Assembly: GCA_965116495.1 (NCBI GenBank)
Contig: OZ220696.1
Coordinates: forward strand, 2,688,001 to 2,752,000
DNA: 64,000 nucleotides
Direction of reading: 5' to 3'
Origin: Gammaproteobacteria bacterium
Lineage (GTDB): Bacteria > Pseudomonadota > Gammaproteobacteria > Eutrophobiales > Eutrophobiaceae
A program made the position numbers and the translations under genes. The notes under the pieces are model-generated. The model was given only the letters and a program-made list of their open reading frames with translations, made no database searches and was not told the origin of the DNA. Below are positions 17,652-59,963 of the stretch, piece by piece; position 1 is the stretch's first letter; every line of letters starts with the position of its first letter.

Positions 17652-18623
17652 GTGTCATTTGTTCAACGTTTCATAGAAAGAACACGGGCAGTCTCTGCAC
17701 GACTTGTGTTACCCGAGGGAGACAATGTCCGGATGCTCGCGGCTGCAAGTAGAATCGCGATTGAAGGAATGGGGGAGGTATTCCTTATCGGTAAGCCTGA
17801 GAGTATCGAGGTGTTGGCAGCAGACAATAATATATCGCTGGAAGCCTGCACAATCGTCGATCCGCGCACAAGTGGCCGTAGGCAATACTATGCTGAATTG
17901 TATACCAGTCAGCGTGGTAAAGTGAATTCCGGGATGGCGCTCCGGGCCATGCACAAGCCGCTTTACTTCGGAGCGATGATGGTAAAGGCAGGCGACGCCG
18001 ATGTGCTGCTTGCGGGTATCGACAACCCGACGCGGAGGGTTATCGAAGCTACGCAATTGTGCATTGGTCTCGCTGATGGTATTCAGACACCATCTAGTTT
18101 TTTTATCATGCTCCCGAAGGACAGCAAACCGCTCGTTTTTGCGGACTGTGCCGTCAATGCTGATCCCACGGCAGAAGAACTCGCTGATATTGCCATCACG
18201 TCGGCCAGAAATGCGGAGCGACTACTTGATGATGAACCTCGCGTAGCGCTGCTTTCGTTTTCGACAAAGGGCAGCGCCAGTCATTCGCACGTCGATAAGG
18301 TCGTGCGTGCAGTATCGCTTGTTCGGGAGCGGGCGCCTGGACTCGCGGTCGATGGAGAACTACAGGCGGATAGCGCGCTCATTCCTGCGATCGCGGAAAT
18401 CAAGTCGGTCTCGTCGGGTGCTGTAGCCGGCCATGCTAATGTGTTGATATTCCCGGACCTGGATGCCGGTAACATCGCCTACAAGCTTGTCCAGCACCTG
18501 GGTCATGCCGATGCCATCGGACCTGTACTGCAGGGGTTTGCCAAACCTGTAGCTGACTTGTCCCGGGGAGCAAGTGTAGAGGATGTAGTTGCCACCGCGG
18601 CAATCATGGTTTCGATAACATAG
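17652..18623 (+). CDS. pta: Phosphate acetyltransferase
   Basis: [42 protein letters not shown]. Confidence 0.9.
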
Positions 18624-18689: not shown

Positions 18690-19715
18690 CTATTTCCCTG
18701 CAACATATTTTTCCAGCTTTTCCAGGTAATGTGCCTTGGCATGTTCAGAAATCCAGGCGGAATTAAACGCGTTACGTGTCAACCGGACAATTTCATCCTT
18801 TGTATAGCTGCCATGTTTGTGCATTTCTATAAAAATATTATTCAGGTAGCGGCTTGCAAATTCCGCCGGGTCATCCGTGTTGATGGAAACGAGCAGTCCC
18901 AGTTCGAGCATTTCGCGGATACTCTCCAACCGCCGGGGAGCAGGATCTGAAGGCCGCCAGGTAGGGCACATCGTGAGGGGGATCTGCAACTCTCGAACCA
19001 TTGCAGTTAATTCCGGGCTGTCGATAACATGCAGGCCATGATCGATACGTTCTACCTGCAATAGTTCCAGGCATTGGCGGATATGTTCGATGGAATTCGG
19101 CTGGTTGCAATCACAATGTGAGGTCAGACGATAGCCTTCTTCCCGTGCTCGCCTGAATACCTCCACGAACTTCAAAGCGAAATTATTCACTTCATAATTA
19201 TCCAGCCCCACCCCGATGATCTCATCTTTAAAAGGTTTAGCCATATCGAGTATTTCCATGGAGGATTCGGCACTATGATCCCTCTGGAAACTCATTATCC
19301 AGTTTGATTCGATCCCAAAATCACGTCTTCCGTCCCTCCTTGCCTGATTAAGTGCGTTGAAGTATTCGGAAAATACAAGTCCCCGACTGATATGTACCTG
19401 TGTTTCGAACATGATTTCCAGATAGACGATGTTCTCTTCAGCAGATTTCTTAAAAAATGCGTAAGCGAGTTCATAGAAATCCTGCCCTGTTTGTAATACA
19501 CGGAGACAGTTCTCATGGTATTTCAAAAAATTATCCAGCGCCGGTTCGCCATAATCCTGTGCCGCCCACACTTCATCTTCATCCCGGTAGGGGATATCCA
19601 CACCGTTGCGTTCTGCGAAGCGCAATAACATCAGTGGTTCTACACATCCCTCAATGTGGACGTGCAGTTCCGCCTTGGGCATTCCGGTAATGAAGTCTTT
19701 TAAACCGTATGACAT
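18690..19715 (-). CDS. Adenosine/adenine deaminase family amidohydrolase
   Basis: MPKAELHVHIEG, RIDHG, PLTMCP and SINTDDP. Confidence 0.85.
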   Translation of the reverse strand: MSYGLKDFITGMPKAELHVHIEGCVEPLMLLRFAERNGVDIPYRDEDEVWAAQDYGEPALDNFLKYHENCLRVLQTGQDFYELAYAFFKKSAEENIVYLEIMFETQVHISRGLVFSEYFNALNQARRDGRRDFGIESNWIMSFQRDHSAESSMEILDMAKPFKDEIIGVGLDNYEVNNFALKFVEVFRRAREEGYRLTSHCDCNQPNSIEHIRQCLELLQVERIDHGLHVIDSPELTAMVRELQIPLTMCPTWRPSDPAPRRLESIREMLELGLLVSINTDDPAEFASRYLNNIFIEMHKHGSYTKDEIVRLTRNAFNSAWISEHAKAHYLEKLEKYVAGK

Positions 19716-19798: not shown

Positions 19799-21142
19799 TC
19801 AAGTATAACTATCAAGCACCTCGCGGATGATTCCGCACATATCGCCTATTTCCGATTTTTCGATAATGAAAGGTGGCGCAATCAACGCCGCATCTCCCGT
19901 GGTCTTGACATGTACGCCGGCATCAAACAGGCGCTTCTGGAAGTCGTGGCCTCGCATGCCCGGTCTCTCTTCAACCAACAGCTCAATAGCAGCCAGCATC
20001 CCGTAACCGCGGATATCCGTGATCAGCGGATGCTCCTGCAGGGCAAAAACTGAATCAAGAAAGTAACCGGAGAGGTCTTTGGCCCGCTGAAACAAGTTTT
20101 CCTTCTCGTAAATATCCAGTGTTGCCAGGCTTGCAGCGCAGGCGGCAGGATGACCTGAATAGGTGTATCCATGGAAGAATTCAATCATGTCTTCTTCGGC
20201 GGCGCCTACGACGGTATCATATATCCGGTCGTGGACGGCAACGCCCGACATGGGCTGGGCAGCATTCGTCATGGCTTTGGCCATCGTTATGATGTCGGGC
20301 GTCACGCCGAATTCCTGCGCAGCAAATGCCGAACCGGTGCGTCCGAACCCGGTGATCACCTCATCAAAAACCAGCACTATGTCATATTGATCGCAAATTT
20401 CACGCAGCCGCTCCAGGTAACCTTCGGGAGGCACCAGCACACCCGTGGAACCGGCGATTGGCTCGATGAAACAGGCGGCTATCCGACTCTCGCCATACGT
20501 CTTAATAATCCGTAACAGATCGTCGGCAAGGTCTTCACCGCCGTCACCGGGTTGACCTTTAATAAATTTCTGGTCGGCTGTTGCCGTACTGCGCATATAG
20601 GCCACACCCGGCAGGACACTGGTGAAAGCCTCCCTGTTTTTGACGATACCGGCGAGTGACGTACCCCCGATATTCACTCCGTGATAAGCCCGTTCACGGG
20701 AAACAAATATGTTCTTTTGCGATTGCCGTCTCGCAAAGTTATAAGCCATGACAATTTTCATGGCCGTATCAACGGCCTCCGAGCCCGAATTTCCATAGAA
20801 GATGTGATTCAACGGTTCCGGCGTTATAGCCGCTAAACGCCTCGCGAGTTCGAACGATTTGGGGTGTCCGCGCAAAAAGGGTGAAGTATAATCAAGTTCC
20901 TGAAGCTGCTCATGCACCGCAGTGGCGATCTCGTGACGGCAATGACCACAGGGAACGGAAAACAGGCCGGATGAACCGTCAATAAGGCGTTCACCCCGGT
21001 TATTCCATACATGGATCCCTTTCCCTCTTACGATCAGCCGGGGCTCCCGCTTGAAAGATTTATTGTCGGTAAACGGCATCCAGTGGTTTTCCAGGTCAGC
21101 ACGGGAACAGTGCCGGTTGGTGATTTCACTTTTATCTGTCAT
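19799..21142 (-). CDS. Class III omega-amino acid:pyruvate aminotransferase (BauA-like; candidate taurine/hypotaurine transaminase)
   Basis: HWMPFT, NSGSEAVDTA, YHG, FDEVITGFGRTG and PDIITMAK; divergent from tauR; start taken at ATG 21142. Confidence 0.85.
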   Translation of the reverse strand: MTDKSEITNRHCSRADLENHWMPFTDNKSFKREPRLIVRGKGIHVWNNRGERLIDGSSGLFSVPCGHCRHEIATAVHEQLQELDYTSPFLRGHPKSFELARRLAAITPEPLNHIFYGNSGSEAVDTAMKIVMAYNFARRQSQKNIFVSRERAYHGVNIGGTSLAGIVKNREAFTSVLPGVAYMRSTATADQKFIKGQPGDGGEDLADDLLRIIKTYGESRIAACFIEPIAGSTGVLVPPEGYLERLREICDQYDIVLVFDEVITGFGRTGSAFAAQEFGVTPDIITMAKAMTNAAQPMSGVAVHDRIYDTVVGAAEEDMIEFFHGYTYSGHPAACAASLATLDIYEKENLFQRAKDLSGYFLDSVFALQEHPLITDIRGYGMLAAIELLVEERPGMRGHDFQKRLFDAGVHVKTTGDAALIAPPFIIEKSEIGDMCGIIREVLDSYT

Positions 21143-21267
21143 GACATCAACCACTTCTGCTAATCTAATGGTCATTCTGTTCACCTGTATAATGTGATTA
21201 TGCCAACTTTATCTTGCCGGTCATCGGAGATATTACGGGGCGGCCCTGTCCTCAGGTAGTGCCAGAA

Positions 21268-22755
21268 ATGAGTAAGCGATCACACCAGCTAATGTGGACA
21301 CAACTGATACAACTGGAAGGGTCTGCCCAGGAAAGTTTGCAGATGCAAGTGAGAAAAGGGCTTACCAGGGCAATCCTTGAAGGCAGGATAAGCATGGATT
21401 TGCCGCTCCCTTCAGGTCGTGAACTGGCACAGCAACTGAAAGTCTCCCGCAATACGATCGTGCTGGCCTATCAACGCCTTGTAGATGAAGGCTACCTTAT
21501 CAGCCGGGAGAGACAAGGCTATTTTGTCAATCCGGCGATACTCAGGTCCGCACCACTGTTTCAAGATGAGCAGGATATAACTGATACAGCCACACCGAAT
21601 TGGCAGACCCGGCTTAATATCGACCTCTCTGTACAACGTAACATTCAAAAACCGGTTGATTGGCAAAAATATAAATATCCTTTTATCTACGGTCAGTCAG
21701 ACCCTGCCTTATTTCCCATAGCAGATTGGCGGGAATGTGTACGCCAGTCGCAGAGTGTGGCCCTGATTGCAGCAGGGAGTCTGGACTATATTGACCAGGA
21801 TGATGAAGTGCTGGTAGAGGAGTTGTGTATCCGGGTTTTACCCAGGCGGGGCATATGGATCAAATCGGAAAACCTGTTAGTCACGATCGGCGCCCAGAAC
21901 GCCTTGTCAGTCATCTCTCAATTGCTTTTCAACAAAGATACCGTGATAGGTATTGAAAATCCCGGCTACCCCGATGCCCGGAATTTATTTTTATTACGCA
22001 CCGAACAACTGGTGTTACTCGATGTTGACGAAAACGGTCTGGTCATCAATGACAAAATCGACAGGTGCGATTATGTCTATGTGACCCCCAGCCACCAATC
22101 ACCTACAACCGCCACCATGCCTTTAAACAGGCGCAAAGCTTTACTGGAAAAAGCGAATACGCACGACCTGATAATAATAGAAGATGATTATGAATCGGAG
22201 GCAAATTATATCCACCAGGCAAATCCGGCTTTAAAAAGCCTTGATAAGGACAACCGGGTCATCTATTGCGGCAGTTTGTCGAAATCGCTGGCGCCGGGTC
22301 TGCGCCTCGGGTTTCTTGTCGCAGACCCTGAGTTGATACAACAAGCACGTATGCTGCGGCGGCTTTTGTTACGTCATCCCCCTGCGCTGGTACAACGTAC
22401 AGTTGCCTTGTTTCTACAGCTTGGACATTATGACTCCCATGTCAGTCGTATTAACCAGGTGTTAAAGAGACGTTGGGAACACATGTGCGCGGCGTTGGAA
22501 CAATACCTGCCTGATGCAACGGACATTCCAGAATTCGGCGGTACGGCATTCTGGGTAAGGGGCCCCGCTGCATGTGACGCTCGTCTGCTCGCGCAGTCAT
22601 GTGCCGTACAAAGCATCTTGATTGAACCGGGAGATGTTCATTTCGGCCAGGACCACCCCCCGATGAATTATTTTCGTCTCGGTTTCTCTTCAATAACAGA
22701 GGGCAGGATAAATGACGGTATCTCCCTGATCAGTAAGAAAATAGACCGTATGTGA
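21268..22755 (+). CDS. tauR: MocR/GabR-family PLP-dependent regulator, TauR-like
   Basis: GntR wHTH (LPSGRELAQQLKVSRNTIVLAY), then aminotransferase domain (YVTPSHQSPT, IIEDDYE, SLSKSLAPGLRLG); directly upstream of xsc. Confidence 0.78.
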   Translation: MSKRSHQLMWTQLIQLEGSAQESLQMQVRKGLTRAILEGRISMDLPLPSGRELAQQLKVSRNTIVLAYQRLVDEGYLISRERQGYFVNPAILRSAPLFQDEQDITDTATPNWQTRLNIDLSVQRNIQKPVDWQKYKYPFIYGQSDPALFPIADWRECVRQSQSVALIAAGSLDYIDQDDEVLVEELCIRVLPRRGIWIKSENLLVTIGAQNALSVISQLLFNKDTVIGIENPGYPDARNLFLLRTEQLVLLDVDENGLVINDKIDRCDYVYVTPSHQSPTTATMPLNRRKALLEKANTHDLIIIEDDYESEANYIHQANPALKSLDKDNRVIYCGSLSKSLAPGLRLGFLVADPELIQQARMLRRLLLRHPPALVQRTVALFLQLGHYDSHVSRINQVLKRRWEHMCAALEQYLPDATDIPEFGGTAFWVRGPAACDARLLAQSCAVQSILIEPGDVHFGQDHPPMNYFRLGFSSITEGRINDGISLISKKIDRM

Positions 22756-22782: not shown

Positions 22783-22814
22783 CTGGAACTTGGGATACAA
22801 CATAACTGGCTCTA
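22783..22814 (+). promoter_or_regulatory. Candidate TauR direct-repeat box upstream of xsc
   Basis: CTGGAACTT-N14-CTGGCTCTA (23-bp period). Confidence 0.5.
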
Positions 22815-22899
22815 TTTTCCGCATGCTTACATATGTACAGTGAGCCTTTCTGCAATGAGCGTCCACGCCACAAACCATGATTACAGGTAAAATCAGACA

Positions 22900-24654
22900 A
22901 TGACACGAATGAGCCCAAGCGAAGCCCTTGTGGAAACAATGGTCGCCAACGGTGTAACCAGGATCTTCGGCATTATGGGTTCCGCTTTTATGGATGCCAT
23001 GGATATCTTCGAGCCTGCCGGGATATACATGGTGTCGGTGGTACATGAACAGGGGGCGGCACACATGGCGGATGGATATTCGCGGGTGAGCGGCCGCCAT
23101 GGCGTGTGTATCGGCCAGAACGGACCGGGAATCAGCAATTGTGTTACGGCCATCGCTGCCGCGTATTGGGCTCACTCTCCGGTGGTCATCATCACGCCGG
23201 AAGCAGGCACCATGGGCACGGGACTCGGCGGGTTCCAGGAAGCCAACCAGTTGCCCATGTTCCAGGAGTTCACGAAATACCAGGGGCACGTCAATAACCC
23301 GAAACGCATGGCTGAAATCGCGGGTCGCTGCTTCGAGCGGGCTCTCTCGGAAATGGGCCCCGCCCAGTTAAATATTCCACGGGATCATTTCTATGGTGAA
23401 CTAGACGTGGAAATCCCGCAGCCGCGCGCCCTGGACAGGGGACCCGGTGGCGCTACGAGTTTGAATGAAGCGGCAGAGCTTTTAGTCAACGCGACATTCC
23501 CCGTCATAATCTCCGGCGGTGGTGTCGTGATGGGTGATGGTGTGGATGAATGTAAAGCGCTGGCCGAACGTCTCGGCGCCCCGGTAGTCAACAGTTATCT
23601 GCACAACGATTCCTTCCCTGCAAGCCACCCGCTCTGGTGCGGACCCTTAGGATACCAGGGGTCCAAAGCCGGTATGAAACTCATCAGTAAGGCTGACGTC
23701 GTATTAGCGCTTGGCACCCGGCTGGGACCCTTTGGGACATTGCCCCAGTACGGAATGGAATACTGGCCGGAGGACGCGCAAATCATCCAGGTGGATGCGG
23801 ATCACAAAATGCTGGGGCTGGTAAAGAAGATTTCTGTCGGTATCTGTGGCGATGCCAAAGCCGCCGCCGCCGCATTACTGTCCCGCATTGACGATAAATC
23901 CCTGGCTTGTGACGCCAGTAAGGCGCAGCGCGCAAAAGTTATCGAGCAGGAAAAAGAAACCTGGGAAAAAGAACTGGATGAATGGCGCCATGAGAAAGAC
24001 GATTTCAGCCTGAAAGTGATAGCAGAGGCAGAGGACAAATTGCTGTCCCCGCGCCAGGTCCTGCGGGAACTGGAAAAGGCCATGCCGGCCGATGTCATGG
24101 TATCCACCGACATCGGCAATATCTGTTCGGTGTCGAACAGCTATCTGCGCTTTGAACGACCGCGCAGCATGTTTGCCGCCATGAGTTTCGGCAACTGCGG
24201 TTACGCCTTCCCTACCATCATCGGCGCCAAACTGGCCGCCATGGACCGTCCGGCGGTCTCCTATGTAGGTGACGGCGCCTGGGGCATGAGCATGGGTGAG
24301 ACCATGACCTGTGTGCGCGAGGGCATCCCGGTCACTTCGGTGGTGTTCAACAATATGCAATGGGGCGCGGAGAAGAAGAATCAGGTGGATTTCTACGGGC
24401 GCCGTTTTGTTGCCGGCGACCTGAAGAACCAGAGCTTTGCCGGTATTGCGCGGGCCATGGGCGCTGAAGGTATTGTCGTTGATAAACTCGAAGACGTCGG
24501 CCCTGCCCTCACCAGGGCCATAGATGCCCAGATGAATGACGGCAGGACGACGATACTCGAGATTATGTGTACCCGGGAGTTAGGTGATCCGTTCCGTCGG
24601 GACGCCTTATCCAAACCGGTGCGCCATCTGGATAAGTATCAAAACTACACCTGA
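22900..24654 (+). CDS. xsc: Sulfoacetaldehyde acetyltransferase (ThDP-dependent)
   Basis: FGIMGSAFMD, HEQGAAHMADGY, GPLGYQGSK, GDGAWGMS, QWGAEKKNQ and ELGDPFRRDA are diagnostic of Xsc. Confidence 0.95.
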   Translation: MTRMSPSEALVETMVANGVTRIFGIMGSAFMDAMDIFEPAGIYMVSVVHEQGAAHMADGYSRVSGRHGVCIGQNGPGISNCVTAIAAAYWAHSPVVIITPEAGTMGTGLGGFQEANQLPMFQEFTKYQGHVNNPKRMAEIAGRCFERALSEMGPAQLNIPRDHFYGELDVEIPQPRALDRGPGGATSLNEAAELLVNATFPVIISGGGVVMGDGVDECKALAERLGAPVVNSYLHNDSFPASHPLWCGPLGYQGSKAGMKLISKADVVLALGTRLGPFGTLPQYGMEYWPEDAQIIQVDADHKMLGLVKKISVGICGDAKAAAAALLSRIDDKSLACDASKAQRAKVIEQEKETWEKELDEWRHEKDDFSLKVIAEAEDKLLSPRQVLRELEKAMPADVMVSTDIGNICSVSNSYLRFERPRSMFAAMSFGNCGYAFPTIIGAKLAAMDRPAVSYVGDGAWGMSMGETMTCVREGIPVTSVVFNNMQWGAEKKNQVDFYGRRFVAGDLKNQSFAGIARAMGAEGIVVDKLEDVGPALTRAIDAQMNDGRTTILEIMCTRELGDPFRRDALSKPVRHLDKYQNYT

Positions 24655-24669
24655 GCACAGGGGCTGTTA

Positions 24670-25704
24670 TTACGGGGCGCCCAGGCCCAATTTAACCAGT
24701 GCCTTTTTATAAGCAACAGCGCATGCATCAGCGTGGGTGTGCCGTTCGTTCCTTAAATTAAGCAGGTAGTCTTTGGAGTACAAGTTTTCTATCAGGGCTT
24801 TATCTTCACGGTTTACCTGAAGCATATACTCCAACTGTGCCCTGGGATCTTCACATTCCGATATGACTATCTGATAGACGGTAGATCGATAAGCGGAATT
24901 GGGTGATACGACATCGTGAATGGCATACCTTACCCTGCCGTCTTCCTCCTGATCAACCAGCATAGAGCAAAAGGGTAATGTCAATTCTGATACCAGAGTA
25001 AAGTCTCTTGTCAATCCGTCCACTGCGGAACGGCTTATTTTCACCCGTCTCAGCAAGTGCGGTACTGTCTGATCCACAACGAATTCCGGTATACTTGGAT
25101 CTTCAGGATTGCCAAACGTGTCTGCATGTACGAAAGGGAGATGCGCCGGGTCATTAAAATTCTCCACATGGCGTGGCGCTGATGCTTCCCACACTTCGGA
25201 ATTGACTGTAATCGTCGTATCCGGGTTATCCATCACATTTTCATTCTCAAGAATGGGCCATTCCGGCAGGGGTAATAACGGGTCGGGGGTCAGACAAACC
25301 CAGAGCAAACCGTATCGTACCAGGTTCCGGTAGGTGTGCAGGTTAAAACTGGCGGCGATGGGTGCGCTCTGGTTCTCCCGCGCCGGGATCTTGATACATG
25401 TCCCGTCAGCAGCGAATTCCAACCCATGGTAGGGGCAGATAATCCTGTCTTCTTTCACATGACCCATGCTGAGCGGCGCGCCTCGGTGAGGACAGATATC
25501 CCTGGCTACGGTAATACCCTCTCTGGTTCGAAAAATCACCAGAGGCAAATCCAGTAACATAAACCGGTGCGGATTTTCACTTATGTCATCGACAAGAGCC
25601 ACCGGGTGCCACATCGCTGCAAGAACCAGCCAGTCAGTCTTTTTGATAGCGGAAATTTCTGGATAACCGGAAGCTTCACTTGCATAATTTGTTGGTGAAA
25701 ACAT
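24670..25704 (-). CDS. Rieske non-heme iron oxygenase alpha subunit (NdmA/VanA-like); the ORF track labels it + but it is on the minus strand
   Basis: CAT at 25702-25704 and TTA at 24670-24672 on the plus strand; Rieske CPHRG...CPYHG; mononuclear Fe ENFNDPAHLPFVH...ED. Confidence 0.9.
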   Translation of the reverse strand: MFSPTNYASEASGYPEISAIKKTDWLVLAAMWHPVALVDDISENPHRFMLLDLPLVIFRTREGITVARDICPHRGAPLSMGHVKEDRIICPYHGLEFAADGTCIKIPARENQSAPIAASFNLHTYRNLVRYGLLWVCLTPDPLLPLPEWPILENENVMDNPDTTITVNSEVWEASAPRHVENFNDPAHLPFVHADTFGNPEDPSIPEFVVDQTVPHLLRRVKISRSAVDGLTRDFTLVSELTLPFCSMLVDQEEDGRVRYAIHDVVSPNSAYRSTVYQIVISECEDPRAQLEYMLQVNREDKALIENLYSKDYLLNLRNERHTHADACAVAYKKALVKLGLGAP

Positions 25705-25735
25705 CGGTGATATATCCTGACGATATAAACTTTTA

Positions 25736-27082
25736 CTACCTTATTTCTTCAATCATTTGTGCAAAGGGTCTCAGACCGGAGTAAAAAATAAAAAAGGCAA
25801 CCGGAACGAAAATCCCTGCGAACAGTGACAGGGAATATCGTATCAATAACGGATCCTTAAACACATAGTCTGTAAAAAACGCCACCACAAACGGACCGAG
25901 GCCTGCTCCGACAAGTATCAATACAAACAGGTAAATCGCTAATATCTGGCCGCGAAATTCATTGGGTGTGACCTGGGTAATGCACGCCATACCGACGCCT
26001 ACATGAATGCCCACGAAAAATAATGTCGGCGCCAACAGACACAGGACCACAACAGCATTCTGTACCAACGGCGCCAGGATAAAAAACAATAAGCCGACAG
26101 CGCCATAGACAGATACCCGCAAATAGGCATCAGCACGCTTTTTTCCGATCAGCCAGTCTGCCCAGACACCACCGAAAAAGGTCCCGGTGCCGCCACAAAC
26201 CAATACCAGCAGGCCGAAAATCAAACCTACTTCGCCTGGCGTCCAGGCAAAATTACGAATAAACAAAGTAGGCGTCCATGCCAGCAAGCCATAGCCCAAC
26301 ATGGCTGTGGTGGAGTAACCCAGGGTGATGGTTGTGTACACGCGTAAATGTGACGCAATGAACCGGAAGGTTTCACTCAGCGGCAACGTTTCCTGTTCGT
26401 TCCCTGGTTGCAATAATTTATCATGCCGGACGGGTTCCCTGACGGTCAACAATACCAGCAAGCCAACCAGCACACCGGGTAGTCCGACAACAATAAATGT
26501 GGTTTGCCATGGCTGCAGCACACCCACCAGGGGTAACTCCAGTGCCGCGCTGTTTGCCACCATTTGTACGACAAGCCCACCCAGGATAAACGACATTCCT
26601 CCACCTACGTATGGCCCCATGGCCAGGAGACTGATAGGTTTACTGCGTTTATCCCTGGGGAAATAGTCGGAGATCATCGAATAACCACAGGGCGATAAAG
26701 TCGCCTCGCCTACGCCGACACCGACGCGGGCCAGGAAGAACACCCAGAAGGTTTTCGCCAATCCGCAGCAAGCGGTCATAATGCTCCATGCCGCGATGCC
26801 TACGGCAATTAAAGTCCGACGATTTTTATAGTCCGCCAGACGTCCTATGAGAATTCCCACAAGCGCATAAAATATAGCGAAGGCGAAACCGTGCAACACA
26901 CTGATCTGCGTGTCGGTCAAGCCTAAATCCGCTTTAATGGGTTCTATCAGTAAACTGATGATTTGCCTGTCTATAAACGAGACAATATTGGCGATCATCA
27001 ATACCGTTGCGACGTACCAGGAGTAGACAGGATTGGGATAAGCATCATTAAGACCATCATGAACTGGTGAATGATCGGTCAT
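25736..27082 (-). CDS. MFS transporter (spinster-like)
   Basis: FIDRQIISLL, GRLADY, RVGVGVGEATLSP; about 12 hydrophobic segments. Confidence 0.9.
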   Translation of the reverse strand: MTDHSPVHDGLNDAYPNPVYSWYVATVLMIANIVSFIDRQIISLLIEPIKADLGLTDTQISVLHGFAFAIFYALVGILIGRLADYKNRRTLIAVGIAAWSIMTACCGLAKTFWVFFLARVGVGVGEATLSPCGYSMISDYFPRDKRSKPISLLAMGPYVGGGMSFILGGLVVQMVANSAALELPLVGVLQPWQTTFIVVGLPGVLVGLLVLLTVREPVRHDKLLQPGNEQETLPLSETFRFIASHLRVYTTITLGYSTTAMLGYGLLAWTPTLFIRNFAWTPGEVGLIFGLLVLVCGGTGTFFGGVWADWLIGKKRADAYLRVSVYGAVGLLFFILAPLVQNAVVVLCLLAPTLFFVGIHVGVGMACITQVTPNEFRGQILAIYLFVLILVGAGLGPFVVAFFTDYVFKDPLLIRYSLSLFAGIFVPVAFFIFYSGLRPFAQMIEEIR

Positions 27083-27088
27083 ACCCAA

Positions 27089-29371
27089 TCAAAAACGATA
27101 AGAGACAGTGCCTCCAATTTGTCGAGGTGGACCACCCGGTATGGATAAATGTTCAGCGATGAAAGTGAATCCATCAGCGAGCCATTCTTCATCGGTGAGG
27201 TTCTTGACCCAGAGTCTCGCGTCCCACTTATCGTCAGGACTGGTATAACCAATGCTGGCATTCAGTATCCAAAAAGCATCCTGTGACTCGTAATCTGTAT
27301 CTGTATCAGTGAAATTTTGATTATCCCGCCAGTGCGGATTGAAAGTTAGATCCAACCGGCCGCCTTGCGTCACCGGCACCGTATAAGTGAAAAACGCATT
27401 CATGGTTAAAGCCGGCGTTTTAGCGGTCCTGTTACCGGTTACATCGCCTCCCCCAAAACCGAGATCAAAACTGGTGCTGACGAATTCGGCCTCTGTCCAG
27501 GCAAAACTTGTATAAATATTAAATTGCTCAACCGGCTGCCAATCAAGTTCAACTTCAGCGCCGTAGCCTTCCACATCACCAAAGTTTGCCAATAACGATA
27601 TACTGCCTAACTCACCACGCGCACCCGGAATCTCAACAAAACCGATTTTGTCCGTATAATCGTAATAATAACCTGATGCGTTCAGGCGCAAGGTCCCATC
27701 CAGGAAATCACCTTTGAAGCCGGCTTCATAATTGCTCAAAAATTCCGGCTCGGTGACCTCAAATTCATCGTCGGCCAGCGCGCCACCATTAAAATCACCC
27801 CCTCTGAAGCTGCGCGACCAGGTAAACCAAAGGTTGACTTCTTCCGTCAGTGCGTATTGCAATGAAATTCTTGCGCTGGGTTCGAACCAGTCTTCTTCCT
27901 GATTATCCTCATCAGCCAGTATGACGTGCGGCAAGCCGAACCACAGATCTTTACCGATAAACGTGTTGGTTAAAGTGGGATTAGGCGGTGCGAGACTACC
28001 GGCAAGAATAGCGCCCACCCGTTCATCCCAGGTTAACCTGACGCCGGCAGTCGCGGTAAAACGATCGGTAAAATCATAGGAAACTTCGCCGAATATCGCC
28101 TTGTTTTCAGACTCTATGATATTTAAGCGTCCGGCACTGGTACCACCAAATGCCAGAATATAGTTGGATCGAAAGTAGGTAAGTTCATCATCATAATAGA
28201 AACCACCTATTACCCAACTCCATGGACCATCACCATTGGAAGACAACCTAGCCTCCACACTCCATTGTTCGTGTTCATCATCAAAATTAGCGCGTAATAC
28301 CCCGGATGGAGCGCCGTCCGTTTCATTTAAATCCTGCCGTTCGTTAGTCTGAAACGCCGCAATTACTGTTGCAGTAACCGCATCGAACTCATAATCAATG
28401 AACAAAGCTGTTTGAAACAACTCCATTTTGGAAAACCCGTCTTCCCCTTGCTCAGTCGTATATAAATCAGAATCTGCCACGTTACCTAACAGGTTTACAC
28501 AGGTGGTGCCGGGCCGGCCCCGCAGGGGATCAGTACAGGAGAACCCGAAATCAAACGGATGTGCGCCCAGGCCAAATGCCTTGTGTGGGGTGTCCTCACC
28601 ATCCATTTCACTATAGGTAACGGACAATCTTGTTGTTAAACGGTCATTCGGTTCCCAAACCAGTTGACCCCGGACAGCGCCCCAGTCATAACCACCGGTA
28701 TCATCGTCTCCGGTTGCTGCCGGATTCACATTTTCAAAATAACCATCAAGGGTACGGAAAGTACCACTGATACGGGCAGCCACCGTGTCAGACAGGGATA
28801 TACCGACTGCCCCTTCAAAGGCGTATTGATCATATTCAGCTGCGGTCACGCTGGCATAACCATTGGTTTCCCCACCCACCTCCGGCTTGACAGACACATA
28901 ATTAACCAATCCGCCTGTGGTATTTCTACCCCATAATGTTCCTTGTGGCCCTTTCAACACTTCAACGCGGTCCAGATCGAAAACCAGGCCGGATGTGCCG
29001 AAGTTTGAGCCGAAAACAACACCATCCTGATAAATCGCCGTCGCATTTCCTGCAGATGACTGGAAATCATCAACACCTACTCCTCGCAGGCTGTACTCTA
29101 CCTTCCCAAAACCGGTACCGGCTGTAGTCAAACCAGGAATTGAATCCAACAGCTCTCTACCTTGGGCAATTGCGCGTTTTCTTATAGTAGTTCCGGTTAT
29201 AGCCGACACAGCGATGGGTACATCTTGCAGACTTTGTTCCCGCTTTTGCGCCGTTACGACTATCTCTTCAAGTACACCCTGGGCCGTAACCGGATTAGAA
29301 AAAATGAATAACAAAGCACAATATAGCGTGACACTTGCCAACTGTTTAAAACTGGTGAAAATGCGCTGCAT
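27089..29371 (-). CDS. TonB-dependent receptor
   Basis: Signal peptide, TonB box LEEIVVTAQKREQ, RVEVLKGPQGTLWGRN, C-terminal YRF; ATG 29371 with GGGGGA RBS. Confidence 0.93.
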   Translation of the reverse strand: MQRIFTSFKQLASVTLYCALLFIFSNPVTAQGVLEEIVVTAQKREQSLQDVPIAVSAITGTTIRKRAIAQGRELLDSIPGLTTAGTGFGKVEYSLRGVGVDDFQSSAGNATAIYQDGVVFGSNFGTSGLVFDLDRVEVLKGPQGTLWGRNTTGGLVNYVSVKPEVGGETNGYASVTAAEYDQYAFEGAVGISLSDTVAARISGTFRTLDGYFENVNPAATGDDDTGGYDWGAVRGQLVWEPNDRLTTRLSVTYSEMDGEDTPHKAFGLGAHPFDFGFSCTDPLRGRPGTTCVNLLGNVADSDLYTTEQGEDGFSKMELFQTALFIDYEFDAVTATVIAAFQTNERQDLNETDGAPSGVLRANFDDEHEQWSVEARLSSNGDGPWSWVIGGFYYDDELTYFRSNYILAFGGTSAGRLNIIESENKAIFGEVSYDFTDRFTATAGVRLTWDERVGAILAGSLAPPNPTLTNTFIGKDLWFGLPHVILADEDNQEEDWFEPSARISLQYALTEEVNLWFTWSRSFRGGDFNGGALADDEFEVTEPEFLSNYEAGFKGDFLDGTLRLNASGYYYDYTDKIGFVEIPGARGELGSISLLANFGDVEGYGAEVELDWQPVEQFNIYTSFAWTEAEFVSTSFDLGFGGGDVTGNRTAKTPALTMNAFFTYTVPVTQGGRLDLTFNPHWRDNQNFTDTDTDYESQDAFWILNASIGYTSPDDKWDARLWVKNLTDEEWLADGFTFIAEHLSIPGGPPRQIGGTVSYRF

Positions 29372-29478
29372 TTTTATCCCCCCAAGTGACCTATTATTAT
29401 CGCTAGTCTCGTCATGCAACTATTATAGAACAGGCTTTACTGACAGAAGGAAATGTAATCCACACTACCACGTCCAAG

Positions 29479-29510
29479 TAGAGCCAATCAACATTTAACC
29501 GTAGTACCAA
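29479..29510 (-). promoter_or_regulatory. Candidate TauR direct-repeat box upstream of the TonB receptor operon
   Basis: Minus strand TTGGTACTA-N14-TTGGCTCTA, same 23-bp period as the xsc box. Confidence 0.5.
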
Positions 29511-29552
29511 GAATAAATTCAATGTTCACCATACACTAAACAATAGAAACTA

Positions 29553-30797
29553 TCAGGCCCAGGATTTAACATCAAAATATACCAATCCATCAGCCCTTAC
29601 CTCCCATCCGACTATAGAGTTGAGATGATAAGGCGCACCCAGACCTCTCTCGTCCCTTAATGCTTCATGGGTAGGCTGGATGTAACCGGTCTGATCAACA
29701 GCACGACTCATAATCACCGCAGGTTTACCCTGCCAGTTCCAGAGGTAACGGAACCGTGTATGGGATTTTGCCAACACAGGTTCCTGAAGTTCCGCAACAG
29801 ACCAGTTCTGTCCGCCATCAGTGCTGACTTCCACTTTTACTATCTTGCCTGCTCCACTCCAGGCAAGACCGCGTACCTCCAGCCACCCGGGTTCTATTTT
29901 CTCCGGATAGGCTGGTGAGGTAATCACCGAATTGGCCTCCATTTCAAAACTGAACTGGCGAATACGGCCATCAGGTAACGGTTCGGAATATTTTGAAGTC
30001 TCTTCCCTGGTCATAAACGGTTGCTCCCCAAGCTCAAGTCGCCGCAACCATTTAATGCTTGTATTGCCTTCCCAGCCGGGCAGCAACAGTCTTACCGGGT
30101 AACCTTGAGCGGGTCGTAATGGTTCACCGTTCTGGGCGTAAGCAACCAGTGCATCATCCCATGCTTTCTCGACGGGAATACTTCGGGTCATGACTGCGGC
30201 ATCATTGCCTTCGGCCAAAAACCAGCTTGCCCTTGGACTGATTCCTGCTTCACGAAACAGCGTGCTGAGCTTTACCCCGGTCCACTCACTCTGGCTGGTG
30301 AGGCCGCGTAAAGTCTGCGGCGTGTTTTTCCTGTCGGCCCAGAAATATTCACCGGTGTTGCCGGAACACTCGATGAAGCACGACCGGGTTATGGCCGGGA
30401 AACGCTTCAACTCGTCAAGTGAAAATTTCAAGGGTCTCTCGACCATGCCATGGATAATCAGCTTGTATTTATCCGGGTCAATCAGCGGTATCCCTCCGTG
30501 ATGACGCTCGAAGTGCAAATCGGCAGGAGTGATTGTTCCGTGTAAATCCTGCAGGGGTGTCGTGGACAAAATATTGGATATTACCTTGCGCTCCGGTTTT
30601 TCGAATGGCGAGCGTTCACCCAAGGCAGCGGGTGGCGCACCCTGCTGTTTAGTCGGATCAATTGTTATATCAGCGACCGTCTTATGTAGTACAGCAACAC
30701 CTGCCGCGCCGGTTGCCGTTGCGGAAAGAAAACGCCTGCGTGAAATCATTGCATCAGACCGGTCAGTCGGTGATTCGGGGTTTTTACTGTTGCTCAT
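29553..30797 (-). CDS. soxC: Molybdopterin sulfite dehydrogenase, SoxC/SorA-like (Tat-exported)
   Basis: SRRRFL Tat motif, LHFERHHGG, FIECSGN, AQNGEPLRP..GYPVRLLLPGWEG; ATGA overlap with the cytochrome gene. Confidence 0.85.
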   Translation of the reverse strand: MSNSKNPESPTDRSDAMISRRRFLSATATGAAGVAVLHKTVADITIDPTKQQGAPPAALGERSPFEKPERKVISNILSTTPLQDLHGTITPADLHFERHHGGIPLIDPDKYKLIIHGMVERPLKFSLDELKRFPAITRSCFIECSGNTGEYFWADRKNTPQTLRGLTSQSEWTGVKLSTLFREAGISPRASWFLAEGNDAAVMTRSIPVEKAWDDALVAYAQNGEPLRPAQGYPVRLLLPGWEGNTSIKWLRRLELGEQPFMTREETSKYSEPLPDGRIRQFSFEMEANSVITSPAYPEKIEPGWLEVRGLAWSGAGKIVKVEVSTDGGQNWSVAELQEPVLAKSHTRFRYLWNWQGKPAVIMSRAVDQTGYIQPTHEALRDERGLGAPYHLNSIVGWEVRADGLVYFDVKSWA

Positions 30798-31432
30798 TTT
30801 ATCTTGCACCTTCCGTCTGCGACAAAACGGTTACGTGCAGGCATATCTATGCTTGCGAGATTTTCTGCGGTTAGTACCGTTTCCTCCGGTATAAGTTTGT
30901 TCAGGTACAACAGGTAAGCCGTGATACTGTAGACTTCATCGGAACTCAGGCTGCCGGGTGAGGCAAAAGGCATCGAACGATTAATGTAATCAAACAAGGT
31001 GGTGGCGTAAGGCCAGTAATTGCCGATGGTCTTCGCTGCAAACTTTTCATCAGGAAACGGATAGGATTGCGCATCGCCGTGGCCCGCCAATGCATCAAAC
31101 GGTTTCCCCTGTCCATTTTCACCATGACAACTCTGGCACAATGAACCGTAAAGTTTCCTGCCGCCGGATACCGTACCCTTGCCGTCAGGCAGTCCTGATC
31201 CATCCGCAGTTACATCCTTGTCCCAGGCATTGATCTCTTCTGTAGTTGCCATTGTTCCTATTCCGAATAAAGCCGGCCAATCCGGATAATAATCGGGCCC
31301 TGTACCGATAGTGGCCTCATCGCAACTGCTGTTGTCACTTTCAAGAGCAGTTAAACCGTCCCCGGCACTGAACAAAATAATGAAAATTACGGCAGGCAGA
31401 TAAGGATAATTTTCGTTATTCAGTTTCATCAT
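30794..31432 (-). CDS. Monoheme cytochrome c, SoxD-like
   Basis: CQSCH heme motif, GSGLPDGKG, KTIGNYWPYATTLFDYINRSMP. Confidence 0.85.
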   Translation of the reverse strand: MMKLNNENYPYLPAVIFIILFSAGDGLTALESDNSSCDEATIGTGPDYYPDWPALFGIGTMATTEEINAWDKDVTADGSGLPDGKGTVSGGRKLYGSLCQSCHGENGQGKPFDALAGHGDAQSYPFPDEKFAAKTIGNYWPYATTLFDYINRSMPFASPGSLSSDEVYSITAYLLYLNKLIPEETVLTAENLASIDMPARNRFVADGRCKIK

Positions 31433-31521
31433 CCTGGATATGTTGCTGTGTACAATAGGATTCCGGGGCCGAAAGCTGTATATGTCATATTTTATATCAT
31501 CAAGTCATCCTGAATACTCGC

Positions 31522-31553
31522 CTGGTATGATCATTTGCGGCGGTGTGGTACCA
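31522..31553 (+). promoter_or_regulatory. Degenerate candidate TauR box
   Basis: CTGGTATGA-N14-GTGGTACCA, 23-bp period, in the divergent cytochrome/Rieske intergenic region. Confidence 0.35.
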
Positions 31554-31674
31554 ATAAACTGCATACAAAATATGAAATATATCTAAAATAACACTGTATG
31601 CCGGTTATTTACGTTAAATATTTCCCGTTTATAAAGACGCCGGGAATCTCATCTGTAACCTAAGGAGACTGGGC

Positions 31675-32730
31675 GTGTTCTTACCAAGCGATCATTCAAA
31701 AACTGCATCAACACTCCCGCGTAACTGCAGCCTGAGTAAAAACGACTGGGAAATCCTGGCCGGCCTCTGGCATCCGGTAGCATTCTCCGGGGATATCGGC
31801 CATAAACCCGTTGCGGCAAAGCTGCTGGACGTGCCCCTGGTCATCTACCGCACCAGTTCGGGCATCACCGTCGCCAAAGACCTTTGCGTACACCGCGGTA
31901 CGCCTCTGAGCCTGGGCTGGCTCAAAGACGATATGATAGTGTGTCCCATGCATGCCCTGCATTACGATGCGGAAGGCAGGTGCCGCCTTATCCCTTCAGT
32001 GGAAGACAAGAACCGTCCCATCTCGGAACGCCTGCGTCTCATTACGTTTCAATCCGTAGAGCGTTACGGCATTATCTGGGTCTGCCTGTTGAATGATGAA
32101 CCCGGCATACCTCTTCCCGAATGGCCTGACCTGGAAAGTGACAGGTTCGCCGCCGACCCTGATATTAAAAAGATGGCCATTGATGAGATCTGGAATTGCT
32201 CAGCGTCACGGCATACCGAAAACTTTAACGACGCAGCGCACCTGTCCTGGGTCCACGCAGATTCTTTCGGCAACCCGGAACAACCCGAAGTACACGAGAT
32301 TGAGGTGGATACGTCAATACCGTATGTGCTCAAGCGTGAGCGTCAACTGGCGGAAAAAACACTGGGACAGGAACGTCTTTCTCACTTTACCGCGGAATTG
32401 ACCCTGCCATTCTCATCCGCCCTGGTGGAAAAAGTTGGTAACGGTAACCTGGGCTACGCGATATATGATGCGGCCTGCCCCATGTCGGCAAGCGAGACAC
32501 GGATATTTCAGATCATCTGGTCCGGTTTTCCTGATAGCTATCCCCACTCTCACGTACAGTTGTGGGAGCAGGTAAACCGGGAGGACATTGCCCTTGTATC
32601 AAGACAAAGTCCTGAAGAAGTTCCGCTGGATGTGCGCGAAGAGATTCATATCCCCGCCGACGCGGTTTCCCTGGCCTACCGAAAAGCCATGAAAGAACTC
32701 GGTTTGGGCGCGCCCCGGTTTGTAACATAA
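31675..32730 (+). CDS. Rieske non-heme iron oxygenase alpha subunit (NdmA/VanA-like), paralog of 24670..25704
   Basis: CVHRG...CPMHA, ENFNDAAHLSWVH, VNRED and C-terminal LGLGAP are shared with the paralog. Confidence 0.9.
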   Translation: MFLPSDHSKTASTLPRNCSLSKNDWEILAGLWHPVAFSGDIGHKPVAAKLLDVPLVIYRTSSGITVAKDLCVHRGTPLSLGWLKDDMIVCPMHALHYDAEGRCRLIPSVEDKNRPISERLRLITFQSVERYGIIWVCLLNDEPGIPLPEWPDLESDRFAADPDIKKMAIDEIWNCSASRHTENFNDAAHLSWVHADSFGNPEQPEVHEIEVDTSIPYVLKRERQLAEKTLGQERLSHFTAELTLPFSSALVEKVGNGNLGYAIYDAACPMSASETRIFQIIWSGFPDSYPHSHVQLWEQVNREDIALVSRQSPEEVPLDVREEIHIPADAVSLAYRKAMKELGLGAPRFVT

Positions 32731-33395
32731 ACCACCAGCGCGGCCGTCATAAGCCCGCCGGTCAACGTAAAAACACCCAATGCCGTTGCATTCCAATGAT
32801 CCATTATCAAACCGCCAACGGCCGGCGCGATGGCAATAGCACCCAGAAATGAAGTGGATGCAATTGATGCCCAACGGCCGTCCCGGTCAAGGGCCGCCGC
32901 CGCACCAAGAAGATAAGGTAAGGTAAAAAAGTAACTTATATTATTGAGTAAAACCGCAACGGTATACACGACGGGATGCGGTACTGCACAGATCAACAGC
33001 CAGGTAACGCCGTTGAAGAGTATTCCGGCAATCACCGGCATGATCCTGCCAAATCGCAGGTCCAGCCATGCAGCCAGCAAGCCACCCGTCATCCCGATGA
33101 TAAAACCTGCTCCCAGCAATCCGCTGATTTGTTCGATCGCCAGACCTGACCGCTCACCCATGATGGCCAGATAAGCCCACGGCGCACTGACAACCATCAC
33201 CCAGTTGAGAAGCGCAAAAAGGGTCAAACAGCCCAGGACAAAATGAGGCAATCGGGACTTTGTATTGTTTTGTTTTTCTACAACGTTGGCGGGGAAACAG
33301 TACAACAGCGGCAAGGTACAAAACACAATCAATGCCAACACGCCGTAACCACCTCCGACACCGTAACCTTTCACGGCATAACCGGCCAGCCAGAG

Positions 33396-34795
33396 TGTTT
33401 TCCAATATGAAATGAGCCTGAAGGGGGGACGTGATTCCAACATGAAATGAGCCTGAAATAGCCCGTGTTTCCGTTCATGATACGAGGATGAAAACGATCA
33501 TGAATGCAAATGACTTAACGCGCATCGACCAGGTGCGTGACTTTCTGTCGGGGACCCAACGGGTGGCCTTTGAGGTGGCCGGCGACAAGCAGAGCCGTTA
33601 CGATTGGGTGCGGCGGACCCTGGTCAGGTTTGATTATTTGAGGTGTAACAAAGCGGACAAAGGGACGCTGATGGGTTACCTGATGAAGGTGAGCGGGTAC
33701 TCCCGTGCGCAGGTGAAGCGGTTGATTAAACGCTACCGGGAGACGGGCAAGCTGGCGCCGCGGCAGTGTACGGCGCGGGGCTTTGCCCGGCGCTACACGA
33801 AGGTCGATATGCGCCTGCTGGCGGCCATGGACGAGCGCCATAATACGCCCAACGGGTTGACCTTAAAGAAGCTCTGTGAACGGGCTTATTCAGTCTTCGG
33901 CCAGGCCGAGTACGAGCGCTTGGCCGGCATCTCGGTCTCGCACCTGTACAACCTGCGCCAGTCTGAGACCTACCGGCGTCAGCGCCATACGGTGGCGAAG
34001 ACCCGGCCGGTCAGCCTGCCCATCGGTGAGAGGCGCAAGCCGCAGCCGGACGGTCACCCGGGCTATATCCGCATCGATACCGTGCACCAGGGCGATTTAG
34101 ACGGGGAAAAAGGGGTTTATCACGTCAATGCCGTGGATGAAGTGACCCAGTTTGAGGTCGTGGTCAGCGTCGAGCGCATCAGCGAGATCTACCTCATCCC
34201 GGCGCTGGAGTACCTGCTGGAGAGCTTCCCGTTCGTCGTCCTGGGGTTCCATGCCGACAACGGCTCGGAATACATCAACAAACAGGTGGCCCGGCTGCTG
34301 GAGAAACTGCGCATCGAACTGACCAAGTCCCGCGCCCGGCACAGCAACGACAATGCCCTGGTGGAATGCAAGAACGGCCACGTGGTGCGCAAGCTCCTGG
34401 GCCACGCCCACATCCCGCGCCGCTGGGCCGGCCCACTGAATGACTTCCACCGCCGGCACCTCAATCCTTACGTCAACTACCACCGGCCCTGTCTGTTTCC
34501 GGAGACCGTCACCGACAAGAAGGGGAAACAGCGCAAGCGGTATCCTTACGAGTCCCTCATGACACCCTATGAGAAACTTAAATCCATCCCCGATGCACAG
34601 ACCTGTTTGAAACCGGGGGTTAGCTTTGACATACTGGACAAAGTCGCTTACCACATCAGCGACAACGCGGCTGCCGACGCGCTGCAACAGGCGCGCCGGG
34701 AACTCTTTACAACCATCCATGAACAGGAATACAAACGGGCTTGAGGTCGGGACAGAATCTCTCTCTCTACAGGCTCATTCCAGTATTGGAAAATA
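33396..34795 (+). mobile_element. Insertion sequence with an integrase-core DDE transposase (IS481/IS1202/ISNCY-like)
   Basis: Imperfect IRs TGTTTTCCAATATGAAATGAGCCTG (33396-33420) and CAGGCTCATTCCAGTATTGGAAAATA (34770-34795); a second internal copy of the left-end motif at ~33435-33457. Confidence 0.85.
33488..34744 (+). CDS. DDE transposase (integrase catalytic domain)
   Basis: IRIDTVHQGD, FHADNGSEYIN, NDNALVECKNG. Confidence 0.9.
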   Translation: MKTIMNANDLTRIDQVRDFLSGTQRVAFEVAGDKQSRYDWVRRTLVRFDYLRCNKADKGTLMGYLMKVSGYSRAQVKRLIKRYRETGKLAPRQCTARGFARRYTKVDMRLLAAMDERHNTPNGLTLKKLCERAYSVFGQAEYERLAGISVSHLYNLRQSETYRRQRHTVAKTRPVSLPIGERRKPQPDGHPGYIRIDTVHQGDLDGEKGVYHVNAVDEVTQFEVVVSVERISEIYLIPALEYLLESFPFVVLGFHADNGSEYINKQVARLLEKLRIELTKSRARHSNDNALVECKNGHVVRKLLGHAHIPRRWAGPLNDFHRRHLNPYVNYHRPCLFPETVTDKKGKQRKRYPYESLMTPYEKLKSIPDAQTCLKPGVSFDILDKVAYHISDNAAADALQQARRELFTTIHEQEYKRA

Positions 34796-35252
34796 CTGCC
34801 AGATCATGACTGCCATTACCATCGCATTGAACGTTTTGACCAACGCGAACATGCGATCGGGAGCAGTAGCAGCGGCAATTATGGCGCCACCTACGGCCAG
34901 GGTGGCGCCGGCACCCAATCCTGCAAAAAAGCGCATTAACAGTAACGTCGTATATGACGATATAAACTGGATACTGACAATGTGCATCGTTACCGCTACC
35001 AGGCAACCGATGATCGCCGTTTTACGTTTGGGCAACCTGTTAATGAACGGCCCTATCAGTATTGCTGTCAACGCGATACCGGTAAACTCCGCTGACACCA
35101 GATAACCCGCTTTACCGGTGGCCATGGACATATGCTGCGTAATAGCCTGGACAATCAGCGGCGCCAGGGCCTGAGCCAAATTCCCAACCAGAAAGGCCCC
35201 CCAGCCGGCGAGGAAGATTAACCCGTTGCGCCGATCAAGATTTAACAATTAT

Positions 35253-45292: not shown

Positions 45293-45367
45293 TATTATTT
45301 CAGAACCCGATATTCCTGAGCATAAACCCGGACAAAATACTGCGACAAAAACCTGAGGTTAACAGAC

Positions 45368-46141: not shown

Positions 46142-46147
46142 TTTTCC

Positions 46148-46975: not shown

Positions 46976-47007
46976 CCTGACCCCTTCAGGATATTGGAGA
47001 CCGCCCA

Positions 47008-57280: not shown

Positions 57281-57287
57281 GCTTCTT

Positions 57288-57377: not shown

Positions 57378-57417
57378 GTAGCCGGGAAAAACAGGATTAT
57401 TTAAGGAGGATTAAAAC

Positions 57418-58404: not shown

Positions 58405-58414
58405 GACCAGGGAG

Positions 58415-59960: not shown

Positions 59961-59963
59961 ACG

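Follow-up and report, generated by a model that had tools for sequence, protein, structure and literature searches.

The catabolism of taurine through an aminotransferase, sulfoacetaldehyde acetyltransferase (Xsc), phosphotransacetylase (Pta) and sulfite oxidation is established pathway knowledge. In Rhodobacter, Sinorhizobium and other bacteria the corresponding genes (Tpa or TauXY, Xsc and Pta) make up the TauR regulon, for which the available part of PMC5320631 gives the operator consensus CTGGACYTAA and describes a highly variable content. A locus of this kind is present in a 64,000-nucleotide stretch of a gammaproteobacterial genome (assembly GCA_965116495.1, contig OZ220696.1, positions 2,688,001 to 2,752,000). 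This whole stretch is the window, its features are given in window coordinates, and the genome that holds it is G000. The best explanation of the locus is that the xsc module, which is conserved and contains four boxes of TauR type, likely imports and likely splits a taurine-bearing purine-type molecule, with the taurine passing to Xsc and the ring to Rieske oxygenases. A probability of about 0.48 was assigned to this reading, which draws on the observed gene content and families, on box conservation together with a constant -10 spacing at three promoters, on co-occurrence of the genes and on the purine-type neighbourhoods of relatives. An earlier prediction made from the same DNA (the original prediction) had used shared boxes to tie a TonB receptor, a transporter and two Rieske genes to xsc, and had proposed N-methylated or conjugated taurines as substrates.

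Comparison with described taurine loci

A regulator of the MocR family, an aminotransferase, Xsc, Pta and sulfite disposal are common to the module and the TauR regulon. The regulator gene lies beside xsc and the aminotransferase gene, direct repeats resembling CTGGACYTAA recur about two helical turns apart, and the taurine half of the module follows the route described in the available part of PMC5320631. Uptake differs, being assigned here to a TonB-dependent receptor and a transporter of the major facilitator superfamily (MFS). The TauABC and TauKLM systems are absent from the module (TauKLM was not searched for genome-wide), and the TauA binding protein was not found, its profile TIGR01729 being without a match in the genome. 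Neither Rieske oxygenase nor adenine-deaminase-like genes are among the regulon members in section 14 of PMC5320631, and 'Rieske' occurs 0 times in its main text. The genes form a series of divergent and convergent blocks, in this order:

16499..17641, plus strand: citrate synthase II (TIGR01800, 427.6 bits, above cut-off), likely for acetyl-CoA use
17652..18623, plus strand: phosphotransacetylase Pta (TIGR00651, 317.6 bits, above cut-off)
18690..19715, minus strand: deaminase-like amidohydrolase of adenine-deaminase fold with HCDCNQ for HAGEEG, a candidate taurine-releasing hydrolase
19799..21184, minus strand: omega-amino acid:pyruvate aminotransferase (AptA type), likely a taurine transaminase (NF052567, 566 bits, above cut-off; 3A8U, E 9e-117)
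21257..21288, minus strand: fourth operator, CTGGTGTGA-N14-CTGGCACTA, overlapping the MocR ATG (21268), with -10-like TAATAT at 21235-21230
21268..22755, plus strand: MocR/TauR-type regulator (PF00392+PF00155)
22783..22814, plus strand: operator upstream of xsc, with -10-like TACAGT at 22836-22841 (6/6 genomes)
22900..24654, plus strand: sulfoacetaldehyde acetyltransferase Xsc (TIGR03457, 1029.8 bits, cut-off 676.4)
24670..25704, minus strand: Rieske oxygenase R1, HpxD/Ndm group (PF00355+PF19112)
25736..27088, minus strand: MFS transporter 1, MFS1 (PF07690)
27089..29419, minus strand: TonB-dependent receptor (likely start 29371)
29479..29510, minus strand: operator upstream of receptor-MFS-R1, with -10-like TACATT at 29457-29452 (6/6 genomes)
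29553..30809, minus strand: SoxC-type molybdoenzyme sulfite dehydrogenase (TIGR04555, 507 bits, cut-off 420), in 5/7 modules
30794..31432, minus strand: c-type cytochrome partner (PF00034)
31522..31553, plus strand: weaker box pair of uncertain target, between the divergent cytochrome/soxC genes and R2
31675..32730, plus strand: Rieske oxygenase R2, HpxD/Ndm group (HpxD 38-40 %; NdmA/B 126 bits)
32676..35248, minus strand: MFS transporter 2, MFS2, split by an insertion element at 33488-34744

The regulator is the only protein of MocR length among eight GntR matches in the genome and is 41-48 % identical to four regulators encoded beside xsc or taurine-type genes, and 49 % identical to one from Paraburkholderia. 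A 56 % homolog of the aminotransferase likewise adjoins MocR and xsc in locus L279. The boxes differ from CTGGACYTAA at three or four of ten positions and retain a CTGG..YTA core. Direct-repeat YTGG-NN-Y-T-A boxes with a period of 22-23 bp were also found in the reference loci of Sinorhizobium, Cereibacter, Paraburkholderia and Novosphingobium. No box was seen in the three regions searched at the Caballeronia xsc locus, and a matrix trained on the present boxes did not place the reference-locus sites within the top six of their loci. In one relative, G019 (L026:9095-10582, L027), an intact mocR has been relocated upstream and a decayed mocR remnant remains between the aminotransferase gene and xsc; both copies retain the start-codon operator and its -10.

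A second comparison is offered by plasmid pLA3 of Novosphingobium pentaromativorans (L233), which carries genes for an amidohydrolase, receptor, permease, aminotransferase, MocR, aldehyde dehydrogenase and TauE. It is like the present locus in its divergent aminotransferase (58 %) and MocR (45 %), in the 23-period box of its TonB receptor gene and in a hydrolase within the operon. It is unlike it in that xsc and Rieske genes are absent from the stretch read and the hydrolase belongs to another family, and the locus is itself uncharacterised. By analogy, this combination of aminotransferase, MocR, receptor, amidohydrolase and box would provide a precedent for a conjugate hydrolase. The pLA3 locus is in its own right a candidate acyl-taurine pathway.

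Operator boxes and promoter geometry

The three box pairs of the original prediction were recovered as described. All six 9-mers are present with a 14-nt spacer, a 23-bp period and gene orientation, at 22783/22806 (plus strand), 29510 to 29479 (minus strand) and 31522/31545 (plus strand). The distance from box end to start codon is 85 bp for xsc, 107 bp for the receptor (to its second in-frame ATG; 59 bp to the first) and 121 bp for R2. That inventory overlooked the sulfite dehydrogenase and its cytochrome, encoded between sites 29479 and 31522, as well as a fourth box pair, 21288 to 21257 (minus strand). The latter emerged from a loose-pattern search; it lies over the mocR ATG and is directed at the aminotransferase/deaminase-like operon.

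A TAnnnT hexamer was located 21 nt past box 2 in 18 of 19 copies of the xsc, aminotransferase and receptor sites and at 22 nt in the nineteenth. All seven copies of the aminotransferase site, found in six genomes, have it at +21, as do five of the six receptor operators, the other being at +22. This offset was spotted post hoc. Genome-wide, the hexamer occurred at +21 in 5 of 459 pairs above 8 bits, the top three being the xsc, aminotransferase and receptor sites. A generic sigma-70 scan was uninformative (24 sites versus 17.8 +/- 4.4 in shuffles). Comparison of four divergent genomes per site showed conservation of 43 of 54 columns in boxes, 23 of 42 in spacers and 60 of 180 in flanks, which were aligned ungapped, so that their conservation may be understated.

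Matrix searches over 8,682,174 positions gave ranks of 60 for the receptor site and 148 for the R2 site when only the xsc and aminotransferase sites served for training, 8 and 2567 when trained on xsc alone, and 2 and 53 when trained on the other three site classes. With all four classes the four sites held ranks 1, 3, 5 and 6, ranks 2 and 4 going to chance-like matches within coding DNA. Matches of such strength numbered 0-3 at each other period, which implies that one or two would be expected by chance. Two positions considered as additional regulon members, G000:2598546 and 2596577, were rejected, as both lie inside coding DNA and lack a -10.

The sites before xsc, the aminotransferase gene and the receptor gene are very probably activator sites. 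The proposed tie between the uptake genes and xsc holds for the receptor-MFS-R1 operon, on matrix ranks, conservation and -10 geometry; its extension to R2 through the 31522 site is weak. That site appears to be real, being conserved in six of seven genomes (G019 has an opposite-strand match instead), and its target is uncertain. Somewhat doubtful, and still to be taken seriously, is that it governs the divergent cytochrome-soxC(-R3) operon, R3 being a third Rieske gene of some modules, or governs nothing, rather than R2. This would fit the lack of a -10 at +21 in all seven copies, the fall in rank to between 53 and 2567 when the site is excluded from training, its position 89 bp from the cytochrome ATG and the sole match in the equivalent region of G019, which points toward R3. 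However, the site keeps its R2 orientation in G004, a genome without soxC, its box columns are conserved (14/18), and a TAAAAT hexamer lies at +30 in five of six R2-side copies.

The hydrolase, oxygenase and uptake genes

The deaminase-like gene lies directly downstream of the aminotransferase gene, under the operator, and its orthologs (71-100 %) occur in precisely the 7 of 23 genus genomes that have xsc, R1 and R2. The predicted fold (pLDDT 93), a TIM barrel, resembles the adenine deaminases 3RYS and 3OU8 (TM 0.83-0.88), and the cog1816 metal ligands (HxH, His, DHG and DD) are retained. The catalytic glutamate of the HxxE motif is missing, with HCDCNQ in place of HAGEEG; in the HAGE motif this glutamate protonates N1 of the ring. 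Fold and metal ligands are likewise shared with Patl2390, a cog1816 cytokinin deaminase, from which, as from 3OU8 and 3RYS, the protein differs by HCDC for HAGE and an identity of 33-36 %. The available part of PMC13296781 describes Patl2390 as preferring and hydrolysing N6-substituted adenines, not adenine. The ESM Atlas returned generic adenosine/adenine deaminase clusters only, and metagenome and class context searches returned mostly ordinary deaminases, which makes them a weak test of the context of the HCD motif. The original prediction left this gene, the best clue to the substrate, out of account; its suggestion of a conjugated taurine remains plausible.

That the two Rieske proteins are paralogs was borne out, R1 and R2 being 45 % identical (E 8e-112) and sister clades in a quick tree (SH-aLRT 99). 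The motifs that had been taken as marks of this paralogy are present, although ENFND.AH and LGLGAP are consensus across the family and R1 orthologs differ from one another at the Arg of VNRED (VNSED, VNKED). This Arg was rejected as a sulfonate anchor for want of conservation. Both proteins have intact CxH...CxxH cluster ligands and a D-xx-H-x4-H...D iron site, as in Rieske alpha subunits. In the Protein Data Bank, R1 matched SxtT/GxtA best (113 bits) and NdmA next (88 bits), R2 matched NdmA/B best (126 bits), and structure comparison placed the R2 fold nearest to SxtT/GxtA and NdmA. Likeness to VanA was confined to broad VanA_C domain matches, with DdmC at 62-72 bits and the guaiacol enzyme at 63-70 bits against R1/R2. 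Carnitine monooxygenase, which cleaves a small alkylammonium substrate, matched R1 at only E 5e-4.

A search of annotated plasmids gave HpxD as the closest relative of R2 that bears a name (38-40 % identity over 95-97 % of length), encoded in an MFS-LysR-hpxD-reductase context; R1 was 34-35 % identical to HpxD. In the available part of PMC7373994, hpxDE are reported to oxidise hypoxanthine and xanthine. The quick tree (73 rows, with R3 standing in for NdmA/B) placed R1 and R2 on the side of HpxD (support 85), apart from R3. As the closest named relative, HpxDE of Klebsiella and Pantoea shares with R1/R2 the Rieske/mononuclear iron architecture at 34-40 % identity over near full length; R1 and R2 differ in forming a separate branch of two paralogs, with neither an adjacent hpxE partner nor a LysR regulator. 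The methylxanthine N-demethylases NdmA/NdmB of Pseudomonas putida CBB5 have the same fold (TM about 0.74). R1 and R2 fall outside their clade, at 88 and 126 bits and separate from R3, to which they are 26-28 % identical, and the present module has neither R3 nor an NdmD-type reductase. R3 itself reaches 315 bits against NdmA as well as NdmB. Four of the seven modules have it: in G014, G004 and G019 it lies upstream of the receptor gene, and in G007 at the end of a contig. It is missing from G000, G016 and G022.

A genome scan for the R1/R2 family yielded 75 loci from 511 stretches, or 68 after the seven copies of this module were dropped; these are partly redundant, with four from one strain and several from this genus. 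A PnrA/BMP binding protein was encoded in 44, adenosine deaminase in 14 and guanine deaminase in 14, with at least one of the three in 56 and a deaminase in 28. Glutathione S-transferase (GST) genes were present in 26 of the 68, GcvT-like genes in nine and xsc in none. The R1/R2 group also has members that adjoin pyrimidine-type (rut-like) genes, so that the ring need not be a purine. Two such loci (L225, L226) combine R2-like Rieske genes and a PDR reductase with rut-like genes, in Cupriavidus also with formaldehyde dehydrogenase, and are candidates for methylpyrimidine demethylation.

Similar neighbourhoods were found for the uptake genes. Five of the six nearest receptor paralogs examined (37-42 % identity) belong to xsc-free purine-type cassettes, and one does not. 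These cassettes hold NdmA-like Rieske and/or adenosine or guanine deaminase-type genes together with GcvT-like genes, and in some of them a xanthine dehydrogenase, IMP dehydrogenase-like or Fhs gene is also close by. In G001, genes for guanine deaminase and a receptor are followed by a 47 % paralog of MFS1.

Substrate and distribution of the module

Judged by these relationships, the second half of the module is descended from nucleobase-catabolic cassettes yet wired to the same operator as the taurine half. The simplest account with a single substrate would be a purine-type ring that bears taurine on an amidine carbon. MocR would activate three promoters and, by way of the site over its start codon, repress its own gene, and the TonB receptor and MFS transporter would carry the conjugate. 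The adenine-deaminase-fold protein would hydrolyse the ring C-N bond and free taurine, as the cytokinin deaminase does with N6-substituted adenines; the change from HAGE to HCDC, with loss of the N1-protonating glutamate, would be in keeping with a ring that is substituted at N1 or unusual in some other way. R1 and R2 may act at different ring positions, by hydroxylation or demethylation, with a reductase encoded elsewhere, and R3, where present, may act as an N-demethylase. The aminotransferase would turn taurine into sulfoacetaldehyde, from which Xsc would yield acetyl phosphate and sulfite, with Pta and citrate synthase using the carbon and the SoxC-type enzyme and cytochrome oxidising the sulfite.

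Candidate substrates are an N6-(2-sulfoethyl)adenine or N6-(2-sulfoethyl)-8-oxoadenine such as microxine, which has a taurine part; an aminoimidazole-taurine such as the tauroacidins is less likely. Marine invertebrates produce many methylated and 8-oxo purines (PMC5793054, in the part available), and tauroacidins carry taurine on an aminoimidazole (PMC3210622, likewise). A narrower version, put forward tentatively, is a dedicated mobile pathway for microxine-type purinyl-taurine conjugates, with the adenine-deaminase-fold protein as the taurine-releasing hydrolase and the HpxD-like pair finishing the purine. Use of taurine via Tpa and Xsc has been shown for a sponge symbiont, without mention of Rieske enzymes in the available part of PMC10356861. 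In the literature searched, largely without subscription papers, no Rieske-xsc link, description of this Rieske family or purine-taurine catabolic route was found. The narrower version, if true, would represent the first route by which purinyl-taurine conjugates are degraded and would mean that the habitat supplies enough of them to support growth. Taurine-to-Xsc catabolism is textbook knowledge; a form of it wired to oxygenases of nucleobase type and to a deaminase-like hydrolase points to an unmapped organosulfonate pool. Two groups of proteins would also gain a function, the widespread clade of HCD-type deaminases and a large, uncharacterised Rieske family related to HpxD/Ndm. The question is directly testable, as three enzymes are named and the substrates are few and can be synthesised.

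Several observations weigh against the conjugate reading. No purine-taurine conjugate was shown in the literature searched, and the available part of PMC5793054 terms microxine only an 8-oxoadenine derivative, listing it beside an N6-alkylated 8-oxoadenine. The HCD motif is no mark of taurine, since HCD deaminases form a broad, widespread clade, 119 of the 120 top homologs carrying the motif, and xsc was found in none of the four outside loci with the motif, which five of 110 loci carry, one of them this module. Two unnamed matches slightly closer to R2 than HpxD lie beside flavin monooxygenase, RidA and hydrolase genes, read as rut-like. In G000 itself MFS2 is broken and R3 lost. The module is without a reductase, and HpxE- and NdmD-like queries gave partial genome matches only. 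The seven genomes are moreover kin or transfer partners, not independent events.

The N-methyltaurine route of the original prediction, in which R1 and R2 demethylate N-methyl-, dimethyl- or trimethyltaurine and pass taurine to Xsc, is probably wrong. The shared operator, the two paralogs, the VanA_C domain and NdmA/B among the best structural matches would fit it, and yet the nearest named relative is HpxD, the neighbourhoods are of nucleobase type and carnitine monooxygenase is remote from R1. A formaldehyde-handling gene is absent from the module and Gfa was not found in the genome, a TonB receptor would be hard to justify for so small a solute, and the deaminase-like gene is left unexplained. 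Some conjugated taurine as the substrate stays plausible; dealkylation of N-methyl taurines by NdmA/VanA-type enzymes is very improbable on this evidence. A sulfoethyl group on a ring nitrogen is also improbable, if slightly less so. A Rieske enzyme would then hydroxylate the N-CH2, sulfoacetaldehyde would go straight to Xsc and the deaminase would act on a ring amine only. R1 adjoins xsc in six of six contiguous modules and is the most diverged member (69-94 % among orthologs, versus 83-99 % for R2), and N-dealkylation is established NdmA/B chemistry, but the aminotransferase-deaminase operon is left unexplained and no natural compound of this type was found in the literature searched.

The strongest competitor, itself unlikely, involves two substrates and one cue. 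Taurine, abundant in many marine animals, would be the signal that switches on TauR, a cassette for free methylated purines would have come under the control of this regulator, and the deaminase and Rieske enzymes would never touch a sulfonate. The purine half does resemble stand-alone xsc-free cassettes (NdmA-like enzymes, receptor, MFS and deaminase), the variable regulon content given in the available part of PMC5320631 fits a captured cassette, and no sulfonate-binding residue was identified, the VNRED Arg being variable. However, the regulators of the stand-alone cassettes are AraC-like and their deaminases, in the cases with a motif reading, are of HAGE or HCGE type, in contrast to the HCD type within the aminotransferase operon here. 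The module also lacks the GcvT-like and Fhs genes typical of methylpurine cassettes, and G000 already has a separate methylpurine-type cassette.

The distribution of the module suggests a single unit. Both xsc and orthologs of R1 (69-100 %) and R2 occur in the same 7 of 23 genus genomes, gene order is retained in six contiguous copies (G007 is fragmented), and the SoxC and cytochrome genes are in five of the seven. Beyond G000, 27 xsc loci were found in a 400-genome sample and 20 were compared over up to 20 kb each; none of the 20 had a Rieske, deaminase or receptor homolog, and two had citrate synthase close to xsc. In G016 and G022 the module proteins share 91-99.7 % identity, in contrast to 74-76 % for one core marker, and the module is absent from G001, where the marker is 88 % identical. 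On this single marker, the module appears to move as one unit.

MFS2 of G000 survives as pieces at 32676-33443 and 34775-35248 around the insertion element; the gene is whole in six relatives. A second Rieske cluster of this genome (G000:C1:2241411-2266144; L037, L038) holds five related Rieske genes, an HCGE-type deaminase gene, a receptor, two MFS and AraC-like, GcvT-like and Fhs-like genes, and is likely to serve methylpurine catabolism; similar clusters occur in several xsc-free members of the genus. Elsewhere in G000, a single NdmA-like Rieske gene (G000:C1:384337-385398; 60 % to R3) adjoins aromatic ring-cleavage genes. No clear PDR/VanB or NdmD-type reductase was found in G000, which has five NAD_binding_1 matches, all outside the module, versus over 30 Rieske-type genes. 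An uncharacterised cassette widespread in Roseobacteraceae, Aminobacter, Mesorhizobium and Arenicellales (L045-L113) combines several HpxD/Ndm-related Rieske genes with a BMP ABC transporter, GST, a Rieske-reductase fusion of ~580 aa and deaminases. Elsewhere in the window, mauE and mauD lie at 15323-16478 without amine dehydrogenase subunit genes beside them; three PF06433 heavy-chain genes are located elsewhere in G000, one ~40 kb from mauE/mauD. By-eye reading further identified three GST-like genes followed by a 735-aa protein resembling a reductive dehalogenase (44399-49215), and a gene run resembling a VirB-type (type IV) secretion or conjugation cluster (53887-63752).

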